From IMG/VR virus record IMGVR_UViG_2585427755_000008, positions 1-5,073 of that record: 5,073 bases of DNA. One strand, written 5' to 3'. Every line of letters begins with the position of its first letter. Position 1 is the first letter of the stretch. The notes under the pieces are model-generated. The model worked only from the letters and a program-made list of their open reading frames with translations, was not told where the DNA came from and searched no databases. This DNA comes from a virus. Taxonomy: Duplodnaviria; Heunggongvirae; Uroviricota; Caudoviricetes. Of this stretch, positions 1 through 5,073 are shown piece by piece. A program made the position numbers and the translations under genes.

Positions 1-45
1 ATAAAACCGGGTGATGCAAAAGTAGCCATTTGATTCACAAGGCCA

Positions 46-74
46 TTGACGCATCGCCCGGTTAGTTTTAACCT
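46..74 (+). promoter_or_regulatory. Possible sigma70 promoter for the tRNA-Thr gene (TTGACG -35 at 46-51, 17-nt spacer, TAACCT -10 at 69-74)
   Basis: Seen in sequence: a consensus-like TTGACG hexamer followed 17 nt later by TAACCT, then a GC-rich stretch (TGTCCACCG) about 40 nt upstream of the mature tRNA 5' end. The -10 is weak, so this is motif-based inference only. Confidence 0.2.
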
Positions 75-114
75 TGTCCACCGTGATTCACGTTCGTGAA
101 CATGTCCTTTCAGG

Positions 115-190
115 GCCGATATAGCTCAGTTGGTAGAGCAGCGCATTCGTAATGCGAAGGTCGTAGGTTCGACTCCTATTATCGGCACCA
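115..190 (+). tRNA. thrW: tRNA-Thr, anticodon CGU
   Basis: Cloverleaf folded by hand: acceptor 5' GCCGATA (115-121) pairs with TATCGGC (180-186); D-arm GCTC/AGTTGGTA/GAGC (124-139); anticodon loop TTCGTAA with anticodon CGT at 148-150; T-arm GTAGG/TTCGACT/CCTAT (163-179); discriminator A187; encoded CCA at 188-190. Length 76 nt. It matches my memory of enterobacterial thrW, the attachment site of phage P22. Confidence 0.9.
145..190. other. Probable attL core (tRNA 3' portion shared between host attB and phage attP)
   Basis: Inference: the integrase stop codon is only 15 nt beyond the tRNA 3' end, so the recombination core must lie in the 3' part of the tRNA. From memory, P22 uses a core of about 46 bp running from the anticodon loop to the CCA end of thrW; the exact limits cannot be set without the attR end. 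Confidence 0.4.
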
Positions 191-204
191 TTTAAATCAA
201 TAAG

Positions 205-1368
205 TTACACATCATTAGTACCTTCCTTATTTTTTGACTGGGACAAATTTGGGACCGATGGGTTCAGGATCGAGTCTATTTGCCGTGCGTGTTCGGTAAG
301 GTGATTAGGTGCAAGGTGAGCATATCGACGAACCATTTCGATAGACTCCCAGCCTCCCATTTCCTGTAACACTGACAACGGGACTCCGGCTTGAACCAGC
401 CAACTTGCCCACGTGTGTCTCAAGTCGTGAAATCTGAAATCATCAATACCAGCCCGTCTCAGCGCCGCTTTCCAGGCTGTGTTTGCGTCATACCGCATCT
501 TCCTTACTGTTGGCGCTTTCGTTCCGTCTGGTTTGGTACAGCTTTCCTTGTACACAAATACCCAACGGTGATGATTCCCGATTTGTTTTTTCAAAACGCG
601 ACATGCAGTATCATTCAGCGCAACGCCGATTGCGCGGTTTGATTTACTCTCTTCCGGGTTTATCCATGCCACCCGGCGCTGCATATCTATTTGTTGCCAT
701 TCAAGGTTGATGATGTTCGAGCGTCTTAAGCCTGTTGCCAGTGCAAATTCAACAACAGACTTTAATGGCTCCGGACATTCATCAATCAGCCTTTGTGCTT
801 CATGGGGCTCCAGCCAGCGGATCCGTTTATTCTTTGGTTGAGGCACTTTAATAATTGGTGCCTTATCCAGCATTTTCCATTCACGCTCTGCGGCTCTTAG
901 TAGGGCCTTTATAAATGAAAGATGCGTAGCCTTCGTTGCAACGGACGCTGGTTTTGGCGTGTATTCTGGAACAGGTTTCCCTTTTTTTCTGCATGCTTCT
1001 GCCCTGAGTTTCCAGTTTTCCTCATGACGCCGGTTCGTCATTTTCTGCATTGCTGAATAAATTTTTGATTCAGTAATGTCTCTTAGTTGCATTCCTGCGA
1101 AATGTTGAAGCCAGAATCCGATCCGGCTTTTGTCATCGTCCAGTGATTTTTTATGTGCTTTCTCTTCAAGCCACCTGACACACGCTTCCTCGAACGTTAT
1201 ATCAGGTATTTCACCAAGTTTGCTGACCCGCCATGCTTCAGCCTTTAGCTTGTCATGGAGTTCTGTCGCCTGCCTTTTGTCCTTTGTTCCAAGAGACTGT
1301 TTAAATCTTTTACCGTTCGGCAATGTGAAACTGGCGTACCATATTTCACCTCTGCGGAAGAGTGACAT
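205..1368 (-). CDS. int: Tyrosine site-specific integrase (lambda/P22 Int family), 387 aa
   Basis: ATG at 1368..1366 preceded by GAGGAAAG; TAA stop at 207..205. C-terminal catalytic signature HDLRHTWAS (H-x-x-R) and [15 protein letters not shown] (catalytic Tyr). The N-terminus [46 protein letters not shown] closely matches my memory of P22 Int, and the length agrees (387 aa). Confidence 0.95.
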
Positions 1369-1595
1369 TTTCTTTCCTCTGTTATGCCATCACCCGCGCT
1401 CACCTGGACAGTATGCAGCGGAGACTGAAGAGCCGCAATGCAGGCTTGTCGTGTTGTGAGGTAAGGAGATTTATTCTTAGTGGGATCTTTGCGTGTTGCC
1501 TGAAGACGCCCTGTGCGTATCCAGTTAATGGCAGTCGGTCTGGATATCTTGAGAAAATGACAGGCCTCATCGAGTGTGAGGCTGTATGGCTCCAT
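1245..1595 (-). CDS. xis: Excisionase (Xis, winged-helix/AlpA-like DNA-binding), 116 aa
   Basis: ATG at 1595..1593 with SD GAGGTG 5 nt upstream; the N-terminus [31 protein letters not shown] is a typical excisionase HTH/wing. Its 3' end overlaps the int start by 124 nt in another frame. The longer 144-aa form in the ORF track (from 1679) has no comparable RBS and overlaps the upstream gene. Confidence 0.8.
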
Positions 1596-1900
1596 TATTT
1601 CACCTCTTGCTGTGACATTGTTGAAAAATGGATACCAGCTCGTTGCTGCCAGACGATCCAACCGAGAGTCATATCCCATGCCATGTATTCGTTATCGTCG
1701 TTTTTTGCTCTCCGACGATCTACTAAGTCACCGAAACGCTTTTCCATGAATAATTCATAAGCTTCGCGTTCATCTGGTTCTACTTCCAGAGATAGGAGTG
1801 CGATTTCATAAGCACGGCGCTCAATATCGTCTCGCACGTCAAGGCTGCTGATACGCTCTTTAATTTCTTTAATCAGTTCTTTGTCGGTAAAAGTGGTCAT
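1595..1900 (-). CDS. Hypothetical acidic early-left (ea-region) protein, 101 aa
   Basis: ATG at 1900..1898 preceded by AAGGAG with a 6-nt spacer; TAA stop at 1597..1595 overlaps the xis ATG (TAATG). The protein is highly charged and acidic with predicted helical character. No family recognised. Confidence 0.7.
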   Translation of the reverse strand: MTTFTDKELIKEIKERISSLDVRDDIERRAYEIALLSLEVEPDEREAYELFMEKRFGDLVDRRRAKNDDNEYMAWDMTLGWIVWQQRAGIHFSTMSQQEVK

Positions 1901-1910
1901 GTGTTACTCC

Positions 1911-2174
1911 TTAACCCGCAGTGCTTTCAACTGACGAGGGGAACAAAATCTTTTCATCAAATCCGGCATTCATATCATGGACAGCAACACACCAATCCAT
2001 TGACGAACGATTATCAAGAGCCTCCATGATTTCATCCATGCGGCGTAGGTCATACAGGTAAATATTTTTATCGCCAATGGTGTAAAAACCAATTTTTTTC
2101 GGTGATGGACAGCGATCAATAACGTCCTGTAATTCGTTCAACCATGCCTGTTCTTTTTTTGTCAAAGTTGCCAT
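1911..2174 (-). CDS. Hypothetical phage protein, 87 aa
   Basis: ATG at 2174..2172 preceded by AAGGAAAA. The ORF-track version (117 aa) starts at a TTG at 2264 and would overlap the upstream gene, so I prefer the internal ATG. The TAA stop at 1913..1911 is embedded in the SD of the next gene. No family recognised. Confidence 0.65.
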   Translation of the reverse strand: MATLTKKEQAWLNELQDVIDRCPSPKKIGFYTIGDKNIYLYDLRRMDEIMEALDNRSSMDWCVAVHDMNAGFDEKILFPSSVESTAG

Positions 2175-2175
2175 A

Positions 2176-2394
2176 TCAGTTTTCCTTATACGGATTAATT
2201 TTATTGTGCAGTGTGTTGAACGACGCCCATACCACGTCGTTATACAATTCAATAACTGGCTCAATTATTTTCCCGATTGCCCAGACAAAAATTAGCGGGG
2301 ATATCGGTATCATCAACACGATAAACAGAATGAGAAACAGGAATTCTGTCGTTCTACTCTTTCGCGGATATTCTTTTCTGAATAATGTCGGCAC
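2176..2394 (-). CDS. Small predicted single-pass membrane protein, 72 aa (GTG start)
   Basis: GTG at 2394..2392 preceded by a strong AAGGAG with a 6-nt spacer. Basic N-terminus (RKEYPRKSR) followed by a hydrophobic stretch of about 24 residues (FLFLILFIVLMIPISPLIFVWAIG). TGA stop at 2178..2176 sits 1 nt from the next ATG. A non-ATG start and short length lower the confidence. Confidence 0.55.
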   Translation of the reverse strand: MPTLFRKEYPRKSRTTEFLFLILFIVLMIPISPLIFVWAIGKIIEPVIELYNDVVWASFNTLHNKINPYKEN

Positions 2395-2395
2395 A

Positions 2396-2728
2396 TCACT
2401 CTCCTTTGATGCGAATGCCAGCGACGCGTAGTGCGTGTTCTAAGTCAATCAGGCAAAGCCAACTGCCATTTTCTTTAGGTATCATGACATGTCGCTTATC
2501 AGCATTTATTGGGTGCCCATATCGAAGGTCGTAGCGAGTCGGTAATTGAACTTCCCTCGCTTCCAGTTCTGTAATGCGTTTGTTTTTAGCTTCTAGTTCA
2601 TCCAGCAGCGCCAGCACAACCTGCGGTGTGACTTTCATACGAAATGCCAGCAATTTTTGTGGTGTGGCTACTATTTTTATTGCTTCTGCCGCCTCACGCA
2701 GTGCCTGATAGTTAATTTTGGTTGTCAT
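2396..2728 (-). CDS. Hypothetical ea-region protein, 110 aa (N-terminus reminiscent of Ead/Ea22-like prophage proteins)
   Basis: ATG at 2728..2726 preceded by GAGGTGG and overlapping the upstream stop (ATGA). The N-terminal motif YQALREAAEA...TPQ and the helical segment LDELEAKNKRITELEAREV resemble, from memory only, the N-terminal regions of Ead/Ea22-like proteins; this is unverified. Confidence 0.7.
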   Translation of the reverse strand: MTTKINYQALREAAEAIKIVATPQKLLAFRMKVTPQVVLALLDELEAKNKRITELEAREVQLPTRYDLRYGHPINADKRHVMIPKENGSWLCLIDLEHALRVAGIRIKGE

Positions 2729-3603
2729 GCCACCACCTCTTCGAATTTCAACTCCAATTGATCACCCCAGATTTCACATGACTCTGAACACGAGCCGGTA
2801 TCGAATCGCCTGGCTTGCACCATCGCCTGATACAAATTTCTGTAGTCGCTGTCGGCATACATTCTGGCAATCCCGTCAAGACTCAGATGACCACGGTACA
2901 TAACGTCTTTATCTGTCTTTCGGTGACCATCCCGGACGTGTTTACCTGTAACCAGCTCATTAAAAACTCTCATCAGACCAGGTTCGTCTTTACATGCAAG
3001 CCCCAGCTTTTGCGTGGACTTTTTGATGCAGAAAACACAGTTCCCGAGGTGCTCCGGGATTTGCAAATCAAAAGGTTGTTTATGCCACCACCGGATAACA
3101 TCCGACTTATCAAAATCAGATAGCTCGGCAAGATACCGGACGCCTGATTTCGGTTTCAGCCTACGAGGTTCGTCTGCACGAATACCCAGCCATGTGATGT
3201 AATTCCCTCGTCCGAAATGGTCATCGCAGTATTTTGTGAAGGGGGTGAGTTTTAATCTGTCAGTGCAGAACGCGCCGCCGATGTATGGCGTGCCATATTT
3301 TTTTACCATGTCCATAAACGGTTTAAGCACCGGCATTCGCGTCTGAATATCCTTTGGTTCCCATTCCGTATAACCATTTGGCTGCCCAAGCTCTGGATTT
3401 ATATCGACCTGCAACACAGTTAGCGGTATGCCCCAGAACTTCACAACCTCCCGAATAAAGCGGTATGTCAGCGGATGTTCGCAACCGGTATCCATAAAGA
3501 TGTAGCAGACGTTATTACCAGCCTTTCTTTGTTCTTCCATCAGGTGAACAAGATATGCAGATGTTCTCCCGCCAGAAAAACTAACTACATGAGTTATGCA
3601 CAT
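2725..3603 (-). CDS. PAPS-reductase-like PP-loop ATP pyrophosphatase family protein, 292 aa
   Basis: ATG at 3603..3601 overlaps the end of the upstream HD gene by 10 nt. N-terminal PP-loop-type motif VVSFSGGRTSAYL (SGGxxS variant of SGGxDS) at residues 6-18. Cysteine motifs CVFC (residues 189-192) and CSESC (272-276). The length and motif placement are typical of phage-encoded PAPS reductase / DndC-like proteins. Confidence 0.85.
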   Translation of the reverse strand: MCITHVVSFSGGRTSAYLVHLMEEQRKAGNNVCYIFMDTGCEHPLTYRFIREVVKFWGIPLTVLQVDINPELGQPNGYTEWEPKDIQTRMPVLKPFMDMVKKYGTPYIGGAFCTDRLKLTPFTKYCDDHFGRGNYITWLGIRADEPRRLKPKSGVRYLAELSDFDKSDVIRWWHKQPFDLQIPEHLGNCVFCIKKSTQKLGLACKDEPGLMRVFNELVTGKHVRDGHRKTDKDVMYRGHLSLDGIARMYADSDYRNLYQAMVQARRFDTGSCSESCEIWGDQLELKFEEVVA

Positions 3604-4130
3604 TTGCGTAATTCCGATAACTCGTTGAAGCGTGCCATAAACATCCCGTAGGCATGGCCCGGTGCCAGTGGAATCACGTTGAACATCTCTGTTGCCGGGA
3701 TGCCTTCTAGTACAGGCCAGAAAGAGCCATCATCAAGCCCGAGATCGCGGCGTTCGGTTGCCAGCATGATGAGATCGGCATATTTCACGGGTGTACTCAT
3801 AACCGGGGGTAACCCGTATTTCTCACGGATTACGGCGTCTATTTTTTCTTCCATCCGTTTATAGTCAGGAAGAAGGCGTTTCAGTGGAGCGGGAATATCC
3901 TGGCAATACGCTTCTGTTGCATCATGCATTAACGCTTCAAAAGCAAATTCCTGCGGCACCAGCTGGCTGCAAAGCACCGCATGCTGGGCGACACTGTAGA
4001 AGTGTGAAAGATGTCCTGCAAAGCGACAGATATTTGAAAGGGAAACCGCGATATCGTTAATAACGATGTCGTCTTTATTTATCTTGTCATAATAAAAATG
4101 CTTCCCGGAAAAAGTTTTAATAAATGACAT
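3594..4130 (-). CDS. HD-domain phosphohydrolase, YfbR-like 5'-deoxynucleotidase family, 178 aa
   Basis: ATG at 4130..4128 preceded by GGAG with a 6-nt spacer; the ORF-track start at 4157 is a GTG with no SD. HD signature: an H in HFYSVAQHAV and the HD pair plus downstream D in ALMHDATEAYCQDIPAPLK, which closely parallels the E. coli YfbR segment MYHDASEVLTGDLPTPVK as I remember it. Confidence 0.85.
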   Translation of the reverse strand: MSFIKTFSGKHFYYDKINKDDIVINDIAVSLSNICRFAGHLSHFYSVAQHAVLCSQLVPQEFAFEALMHDATEAYCQDIPAPLKRLLPDYKRMEEKIDAVIREKYGLPPVMSTPVKYADLIMLATERRDLGLDDGSFWPVLEGIPATEMFNVIPLAPGHAYGMFMARFNELSELRKCA

Positions 4131-4223
4131 TTTGTTCTCCACGTATATGCGCTGCACCGCGCTGAATTCTGGTAAAAGGAAGCCCTCACCATCCGGCGAT
4201 TATTGAGTAAATTATGTTTCCAT

Positions 4224-4245
4224 AAATGCCCCCGCAGGGGCATTT
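4224..4245 (-). terminator. Putative intrinsic terminator/attenuator hairpin (9-bp stem, 4-nt loop)
   Basis: Perfect inverted repeat AAATGCCCC-CGCA-GGGGCATTT. On the - strand transcript it lies 12 nt after the DUF2303-like stop (4258) and is followed by AUUUAUGG, a weak U-tract. It sits between two co-directional genes of the early-left operon. Confidence 0.4.
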
Positions 4246-4257
4246 GCAGTAATGAAA

Positions 4258-5073
4258 TCAGGCGGTGAAAGTACCAATAAAGGTTTCTACTTTGCTGTCT
4301 TTAAATTTCTCAACAAGCAGATCACGAAATTCGTTAGCCATTTCTTCCTGCACCGCTTCCAGCTGAATAATGCGCAGAACCAGTACAGGACGATCGCCAG
4401 TGATAATGCTGAGGCGTAATTTAAACGGACGTTCTTTCAGGCCTTCAAACGGAACGCATTTAAATTCAAATGCCACTGGCATAATGTCTTTGGTCTTCGC
4501 TTCGACAGACTCCATCAGGGAGCGTTTGCCGCTGAAGTCATTGTCTTCAAAATCAGCGGTCTGGTTCGCTTCAATTGTGATTTTACGGATCGCCGCAGCC
4601 GCTTTGGTTGCCTGAATGGCGTCACCATTAGCATCAAAGCCCACAAGGTAGTCGGCCCAGTCTTCAATCCATTCTGCCAGTGACTTTTGGGAGTTACGCT
4701 CGCCATTAACAGACAACAGAGCAGAGAACGGTGCTGTCTTTTTCAGTTTGAGAGTGGCGGTGTTATCTGCGTGACCTGGTTCATCAATAGTACCCAGGTT
4801 AAGCACACTGACGGCACGCATATTATCGGCATCGATAAAGCAGCGGGTGCCTTCATCTGCAAGATCTTTAGAATAACGGGTAAAGTCATCGATGCTGGCA
4901 GTGGAAAGCGCACCACGGAAACGGAAGCGATTTAAATTAAATTTTTCCAGATCATGAATGCGGAAATTCTCAGGCAATGCCACAGCATCGGCACCAATCT
5001 TACTGATAATTTCATTAACACCCTGAGCAGAAATAAGGGCATGGATTTGATTAATTGCGGTTGCGTCTAAGTT
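4258..5073 (-). CDS. Conserved prophage protein, possibly DUF2303/YfdQ-like; 5' end lies beyond the window (at least 271 aa)
   Basis: TGA stop at 4260..4258. The reading frame stays open on the - strand all the way to position 5073, upstream of the GTG at 4983 that the ORF track used as a start, so the true start is outside the window. Family assignment is from memory of the size and genomic context of YfdQ-like proteins and is unverified. Confidence 0.7.

Follow-up and report, generated by a model that had tools for sequence, protein, structure and literature searches.

YfdR, a known E. coli prophage HD-domain protein, encoded in the integrase-proximal arm of an SfV/SfIV-like lambdoid prophage

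The open reading frame analysed here is yfdR, a prophage gene of Escherichia coli which has already been named and studied. It is located in a viral DNA stretch of 5,073 nucleotides (IMG/VR record IMGVR_UViG_2585427755_000008, positions 1 to 5,073; referred to as the window), which represents the integrase side of the early-left arm in a lambdoid prophage of the SfV/SfIV type, located at tRNA-Thr. The gene product is a small all-helical HD-domain protein with intact metal-binding and phosphate/ribose-binding residues. It belongs to a distinct HD subfamily, for which Atu1052 is the solved representative, and it is a remote homologue, but no orthologue, of E. coli YfbR.

Identification of the Reading Frame as yfdR

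The gene comprises 178 codons on the minus strand, with an ATG at position 4130 and a stop codon at 3596-3594. This is exactly the interval (3594-4130) delimited in the initial annotation of the window, and the peptide ALMHDATEAYCQDIPAPLK quoted there is found at residues 66-84 of the product. An alternative in-frame GTG start at 4157 would extend the protein by nine codons. The ATG is preferred, since it is directly preceded by GTGGAGAACAAA, in which a GGAG is followed by a 6-nt spacer, since this upstream region with the ribosome-binding site is identical in the K-12 copy, and since RefSeq calls the same 178-aa product there. A GTG-initiated longer version is unlikely.

Alignment with YfdR of E. 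coli K-12 (b2361) revealed that 176 of the 178 residues are identical, without gaps and with the same length of 178 aa for both proteins. The two replacements are both C-terminal (A166 for E and E170 for D). At 99% identity to this named and studied protein, the product is not the new YfbR-like find that had been implied initially. On the nucleotide level, 28 differences to the K-12 gene were counted, two of which are replacements and 26 of which are silent, one of these exchanging the stop codon. For the neighbouring yfdQ gene, 13 silent codon changes and one replacement were identified in comparison to K-12 yfdQ. The ratio of 26 silent to two replacement changes clearly argues that yfdR is maintained by purifying selection and is no decaying remnant, and yfdQ is likewise under purifying selection.

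By megablast with the gene, yfdR was identified in 2,971 of 5,426 complete E. coli genomes with up to four copies per genome, adding up to roughly 3,900 E. coli copies. The RefSeq/PGAP annotation of these matches, including a 100%-identical locus, reads "yfdR: 5'-deoxynucleotidase". Over its full length (residues 1-178), the protein matches the profile of PHROG 318 with E=5.5e-110, a family of phage HD hydrolases with the label "deoxyribonucleoside 5' monophosphate phosphatase". An exhaustive representative search (E<=1e-3) retrieved 22,722 clusters of the YfdR family at 50% identity. Judged by the PHROG 318 E-value, the number of clusters and the silent differences, the reading frame is far from a chance occurrence. 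Phage T5 Dmp was considered as the protein behind the PHROG label and as a YfdR homologue; it was rejected with an hhalign probability of 0.25% and with its assignment to phrog_415 instead of phrog_318.

Some members of the family are larger, with 350-400 aa and two matched stretches (P0123, P0127, P0129 and P0139), and might represent tandem or fused HD modules. In gp064 of Caulobacter phage CcrPW (396 aa; positions 3614-4801 of locus L007), the YfdR-like part is located within the second half of the protein.

Relationship to YfbR and to the HD Superfamily

With the H...HD...D metal-ligand motif and an all-helical fold, YfdR shows the hallmarks of the HD superfamily. The flanking sequence of this motif had been described as closely parallel to YfbR. 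On the motif level this holds, since ALMHDATEAYCQDIPAPLK and the YfbR segment AMYHDASEVLTGDLPTPVK are identical in 9 of 19 residues, with conservative changes elsewhere. For the proteins as a whole, however, the closeness was overstated, as revealed by the profile scores, BLASTP and Foldseek. The BLASTP alignment of YfdR and YfbR covers only 40 residues with 33% identity. In the NCBIfam equivalog model for YfbR (NF003009), YfdR reached 19.9 bits for residues 41-98 only, far below the cut-off of 122. The Pfam model PF12917 (YfbR-like) was marginally missed with 24.3 bits (E=2.9e-5) against a gathering threshold of 25.9, while the diverged homologues from phages phiKT (31.8) and Thrax2 (34.5) passed it; therefore, the YfdR family straddles the boundary of this model.

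For structural comparison, an AlphaFold model of YfdR built from a 41-sequence alignment was used, and a single-sequence version with a pLDDT of 36.5 was discarded. Foldseek identified the PDB entry 2gz4 with a TM-score of about 0.8, and YfbR with a TM-score of 0.43. The relation to YfbR was detected by hhalign with a probability of 95.3% when a diverse YfdR-family profile was used. It is on the basis of the BLASTP, NF003009, PF12917 and Foldseek results that YfdR is classified as a remote homologue of YfbR and not as its orthologue. Among the defence models of PADLOC-DB v2, no family matched YfdR at E<=0.01.

The Active Site of YfdR

[quoted passage not shown] The Co2+ ion is bound by H33, H68, D69 and D137, while the deoxyribose is contacted by R18 and D77, and ribonucleotides are sterically excluded by W19 (PMC8177086). 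In the hhalign alignment, H69/D70, E73, D78, K84 and D119 of YfdR correspond to H68/D69, E72, D77, K83 and D137 of YfbR. A loss of the HD metal ligands upon proper alignment had been named initially as the result which would speak against the assignment; H69/D70 and D119 are retained.

The predicted catalytic residues of YfdR are R36, F37, H50, H69, D70, E73, D78, K84 and D119. Among 121 full-length representatives, each with less than 62% identity to the query, R36 is conserved in 99%, H50 in 100%, H69 and D70 in 99% each, E73 in 98%, D78 in 95%, K84 in 99%, D119 in 97% and E126 in 98%. Because of motif resemblance, spacing and invariance, H50 in the SVAQHA motif is assigned as the probable counterpart of YfbR H33 (NVSEHS), and R36-F37 in the CRF motif as the putative counterpart of R18-W19 (NRW). 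Neither equivalence was recovered in the MAFFT or hhalign alignments, both of which place the helix with YfbR H33 on another helix of YfdR. At residue 29 (about positions 4044-4046 of the window), a Val is present in the E. coli lineage (DIAVSLS) and a His in the family consensus (DIAHALS). Since the helix around residue 29 is paired with the YfbR helix MVAHALAAI, the first metal-binding His appears to be misplaced by the alignment programs.

Position 37 is occupied by Phe in 90% and by Tyr in 10% of the YfdR family, and never by Trp. If this is the position of YfbR Trp19, a strict 5'-deoxynucleotidase specificity is therefore not to be assumed, and a Phe in place of the ribose-excluding Trp would fit the reported activity of YfdR on the ribonucleotide CMP. 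In the abstract of the 2008 work by Zimmerman, YfdR is reportedly named "another 5'-nucleotidase in E. coli", in support of the argument on Trp19 selectivity. From the designation "YfbR-like HD 5'-deoxynucleotidase" in the initial annotation, the HD phosphohydrolase with an intact motif stands, and the name agrees with that in the databases; however, the gene is yfdR itself, and a strict deoxy specificity is not to be taken for granted.

Published Work on YfdR and YfdQRST

The yfdQRST genes were identified as a multicopy suppressor of the overinitiation caused by hda-185 (Noguchi and Katayama 2016, PMC4776307). In K-12, the minimal set for inhibition in multicopy consists of yfdQ and yfdR together with either yfdS or yfdT (PMC4776307). 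[quoted passage not shown] Deletion of yfdQRST resulted in no replication or hydroxyurea phenotype, and the authors cautioned that the "moderate" multicopy inhibition may be an overexpression artefact (PMC4776307). In the same work, YfdR was described as structurally homologous to YfbR but much weaker in its affinities for nucleotides, so that its function "remains elusive" (PMC4776307). ORFs 29-31 of phage SfV were identified as homologues of YfdQRST, and it was speculated that the ancestral phage used them to shut off host replication (PMC4776307).

Both PMC4776307 and PMC10870394 cite Zimmerman et al. 2008 for the enzyme assays of YfdR, and a phosphatase activity on CMP is attributed to that work in the latter (PMC10870394). 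Deletion of yfdR did not raise the CMP yield of an engineered strain (PMC10870394). In the literature on COG1896 and DUF2303, nothing functional was found beyond Noguchi and Katayama 2016. The three roles proposed initially, namely nucleotide dephosphorylation, sanitising and binding to a host protein without catalysis, are those debated in this literature, and the experiments suggested along with them, phosphatase assays with Co2+/Mn2+ and a DnaA pull-down, are largely in print already. The same applies to the phage-borne nature of yfdR homologues, which has been published for SfV. Since the window protein and the K-12 protein are practically the same, what has been published on nucleotidase activity and on DnaA binding should also apply to the window copy.

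Organization of the Prophage Region

The features of the window are listed in Table 1. The left end of the window is host chromosome, marked by the tRNA-Thr gene, and yfdR is carried by a lambdoid prophage of the SfV/SfIV type, which appears to be intact and is integrated at this tRNA gene. That the gene is phage-borne, as had been stated at the outset, is confirmed by the integrase, the excisionase-like gene and the lambdoid gene string at tRNA-Thr, together with the match to SfIV and SfV.

Table 1: Features of the 5,073-nt window in the order of their positions.
Feature	Position	Strand	Basis
tRNA-Thr(CGT), flank of the prophage attachment site	115..190	+	ARAGORN; Rfam tRNA 71.8 bits; order proA-tRNA-Thr-int in 100%-identical E. 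coli locus
Tyrosine integrase, end of the leftward gene string	205..1368	-	Pfam Phage_integrase 3.2e-48; PHROG integrase
Excisionase-like HTH gene	between integrase and yfdT	-	
yfdT homologue, 101 aa	1595..1900	-	94.7% nt identity to K-12 yfdT; annotated yfdT in 100%-identical E. coli locus
Two small genes	between yfdT and Ead/Ea22-like gene	-	
Ead/Ea22-like gene	2396-2728	-	
PAPS-reductase-like (SspD/DndC-like) gene, 292 aa	2725..3603	-	Pfam PAPS_reduct 4.3e-9; PHROG 424 2e-93; PADLOC SspD 1.5e-15
yfdR, 178-aa HD-domain nucleoside-5'-monophosphate phosphohydrolase, also DnaA-binding	3594..4130	-	published for the K-12 protein
Ribosome-binding region of yfdR, GTGGAGAACAAA before ATG	4131..4146	-	read from sequence; identical in K-12
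yfdQ (DUF2303), upstream gene of the yfdR operon	4258..5073	-	Pfam DUF2303 E=5.3e-86; annotated yfdQ in 100%-identical locus and K-12

All protein genes of the window, from int through yfdQ, are located on one strand, and in the 100%-identical E. coli locus this common orientation extends from the repressor-proximal side to int. The 5' end of yfdQ is lost at the edge of the window. On the minus strand of the window, a scan for sigma-70-like promoters identified none. The operon context of yfdR on a lambdoid prophage, with yfdQ upstream and yfdT downstream, is present, and yfdS is replaced by other genes. YfdQ belongs to PHROG 210, and no match to it was obtained in PADLOC or NCBIfam.

The PAPS-reductase-like gene overlaps yfdR by 10 nt and is translationally coupled to it through this overlap. 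Among the PADLOC models, its product matches that of SspD, which acts as ATP-pyrophosphatase in Ssp DNA phosphorothioation, and weakly those of BrxP and DndC. The homology to CPS-53 of K-12 breaks off precisely at the stop codon of yfdR (positions 3594-3603 of the window versus 9512-9521 of the K-12 locus, L002). Here, the unrelated downstream genes share one start ATG within the last codons of yfdR (AAATGTGCATAA in the window and AAATGCGCATGA in K-12), and the overlap with yfdR amounts to 10 nt in both. The 3' junction of yfdR is a typical lambdoid mosaic recombination boundary at a translationally coupled gene junction.

The spacer between yfdQ and yfdR comprises 127 nt. Directly past the yfdQ stop codon, a perfect 8-bp GC-rich hairpin was identified (positions 4215-4245, minus strand; AAAUGCCCC-UGCG-GGGGCAUUU). 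It was considered as a regulatory RNA or terminator and rejected, with no T-run, no terminator call, no Rfam family and a z-score of -1.6 for the fold of the whole spacer.

Homologues in Other Phages

By tblastn, YfdR homologues were identified in 324 phage records. Among these are virulent and jumbo phages of Bacillus, Caulobacter, Brevundimonas, Vibrio, Stenotrophomonas and Pseudomonas. The yfdR gene itself is present in the functional phages SfV, SfIV and SfII and in Stx phages. The annotated neighbours of the distant phage homologues are genes of nucleotide metabolism or replication. In Bacillus phage Thrax2, the homologue is located between thymidylate synthase/DHFR on one side and thymidine kinase/Pol III alpha on the other; in the Autographiviridae phage phiKT, it is flanked by a helicase and DNA polymerase I, and in Pseudomonas phage Turba, a dNMP kinase and a cytosine methyltransferase are encoded nearby.

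YeP3 and Turba are temperate phages at a greater distance, and their HD genes are not linked to yfdQ. A universal partnership of YfdQ/DUF2303 with the HD protein was rejected, with RdgC upstream in YeP3 and no DUF2303 in Turba.

The Role of YfdR during Phage Growth

On balance, it is probable that catalysis, on nucleoside monophosphates or chemically close compounds, is the conserved and selected function of YfdR, and that DnaA binding has been added in a lineage-specific manner. Catalysis is favoured as the conserved function because of the near-invariant active site, because of the variety of phages and gene neighbours in which homologues occur, and because YfdQ is not a conserved partner. 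The gene is predicted to be part of a leftward early operon of the PL type, located between the recombination/accessory region and xis-int; from this position, it would be switched on after prophage induction or infection and remain off in the lysogen. A single Co2+ or Mn2+ ion, with H50, H69, D70 and D119 as putative ligands, would activate a water molecule, which would then strip the 5'-phosphate from nucleoside monophosphates. Ribonucleotides would probably be accepted as well as deoxyribonucleotides, since the ribose-excluding Trp of YfbR appears as Phe in YfdR. In this way, the nucleotide pool might be reshaped while the phage DNA is replicated. In the enterobacterial lambdoid lineage, YfdR would bind DnaA in addition, and together with YfdQ and YfdT it could dampen initiation at the host oriC, so that phage replication is favoured over that of the host. 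The genetic cofactors of the DnaA phenotype, yfdQ and yfdT, are both present in the window.

Several points have to be set against a catalytic role. A temperate phage in the course of replication would seem to gain little from a phosphatase that breaks down dNMPs, and the sole recorded in vivo phenotype, the inhibition of initiation, is related to DnaA and requires overexpression. The deletions without effect, on the CMP yield and for yfdQRST, also count against it, but both tests were run under lysogen-like conditions, where the operon is probably silent.

It is rather unlikely that the selected role of YfdR is instead a non-catalytic one, in which the protein binds the Phe46 patch of DnaA domain I and shuts off oriC during lytic growth. 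Together with YfdQ and YfdT, YfdR would then block the DiaA-assisted assembly of DnaA and the contact of DnaA with DnaB. The outcome would be analogous to the binding of DnaA by lambda P, and the HD site would either be left over as a relic or serve to sense a ligand. This would be consistent with the direct and Phe46-dependent binding of YfdR to DnaA, the competition with DiaA and DnaB, and the weak nucleotide affinities reported (PMC4776307). It also agrees with the inhibition of initiation by YfdQRST in vivo and in vitro, for which the minimal set is known (PMC4776307), and the window contains exactly yfdQ, yfdR and yfdT. However, a pure binder needs none of the catalytic residues, and these are conserved to 95-100% in relatives at 35-60% identity. 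They are kept even where the host has a different DnaA and different helper proteins, as in the phages of Bacillus, Caulobacter and Vibrio. Beyond the enterobacterial lambdoids, moreover, YfdQ is no conserved partner, as seen for YeP3 with RdgC and for Turba without DUF2303, and the inhibition is "moderate", depends on multicopy and is possibly an overexpression artefact according to the authors (PMC4776307).

A low affinity for standard nucleotides, as reported for YfdR (PMC4776307), would also be expected if the real substrate were a non-canonical or damaged nucleotide, as in house-cleaning, or else a signal or a defence product derived from nucleotides, with pool sanitising or counter-defence as the role. 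The structural neighbours of YfdR include DatZ (acting on dATP in a Z-genome phage), OxsA (acting on oxetanocin phosphates) and (p)ppApp/alarmone hydrolases, and the adjoining, translationally coupled gene resembles the DNA-phosphorothioation enzymes SspD and DndC. In addition, it is generally known that lambdoid phages carry host-interaction genes in their accessory early-left regions. Such a substrate nevertheless appears improbable. The residues R36, E73 and D78, which make up the phosphate/ribose set of YfbR, are conserved and fit an ordinary nucleoside-5'-monophosphate, YfdR matches no PADLOC model, and no such activity was found in the literature search. The downstream partner is also interchangeable at one and the same junction, with yfdS in K-12 and the PAPS-reductase-like gene here, and this speaks against a pathway dedicated to two enzymes. 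Equally speculative, and quite improbable, is a combination in which an early YfdR of an inducible SfV-like phage has a dual function, acting on a non-canonical substrate with its HD site and clamping DnaA domain I through another surface, with YfdQ and YfdT as cofactors, while the SspD/DndC-like enzyme possibly takes part in a nucleotide- or DNA-modification route. That standard (d)NMPs are converted only weakly would then be accounted for by the non-canonical substrate.

A decaying prophage passenger without function, as might be suggested by the K-12 copy, which is part of cryptic prophage CPS-53 and can be deleted without a phenotype, is effectively refuted by the 26 silent versus two replacement differences, and the reading frame, ribosome-binding site and catalytic residues are intact in a gene carried by the functional phages SfV, SfIV, SfII and Stx.

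Conserved catalysis with DnaA binding as an addition thus stays the preferred explanation. As a discovery, the gene is of limited value, since yfdR has been named, its enzymology and its interaction with DnaA have been published, and it is present in more than half of the complete E. coli genomes. What remains of value is the role which this HD subfamily of phages and bacteria, a very large one with more than 22,000 clusters at 50% identity, has in vivo. Here, a strictly conserved active site contrasts with the poor activity of the one well-studied member on ordinary nucleotides, and the only phenotype of this member is related to replication. For the role of YfdR, the prophage of the window would be a better experimental system than the cryptic remnant in K-12, because an apparently complete prophage carries yfdR with yfdQ and yfdT.

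Comparison to Known Systems

YfdR from CPS-53 of E. coli K-12 resembles the window copy in its length, its ribosome-binding site, the upstream yfdQ and the presence of yfdT in the operon. The two loci differ in the gene downstream of yfdR, which is yfdS in K-12, while the PAPS-reductase-like gene takes this slot in the window. They also differ in their carrier: in K-12, yfdR is located on the cryptic remnant at argW, whereas the window copy is part of an apparently complete prophage at the tRNA-Thr gene next to proA.

Phages SfIV and SfV share about 98.5% identity with the window over 64% of its length. For SfV, SfIV and SfII, about 98% nucleotide identity was identified over int, xis, yfdR and yfdQ, with 47-64% of the window covered. 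These three phages do not share the segment which separates yfdT from yfdR and contains the Ead/Ea22-like gene, the PAPS-reductase-like gene and their neighbours.

On the protein level, Atu1052 from Agrobacterium tumefaciens (PDB 2gz4) is a chromosomally encoded structural-genomics protein with 26-27% identity to YfdR, and contains RW where RF is present in YfdR. E. coli YfbR (5'-deoxynucleotidase, EC 3.1.3.89; PDB 2paq/2par) shares the HD fold and the layout of the active site with YfdR. The deoxynucleoside-5'-monophosphatase Dmp of phage T5 has nominally the activity given in the label of PHROG 318, but is encoded by a pre-early gene of a virulent phage.
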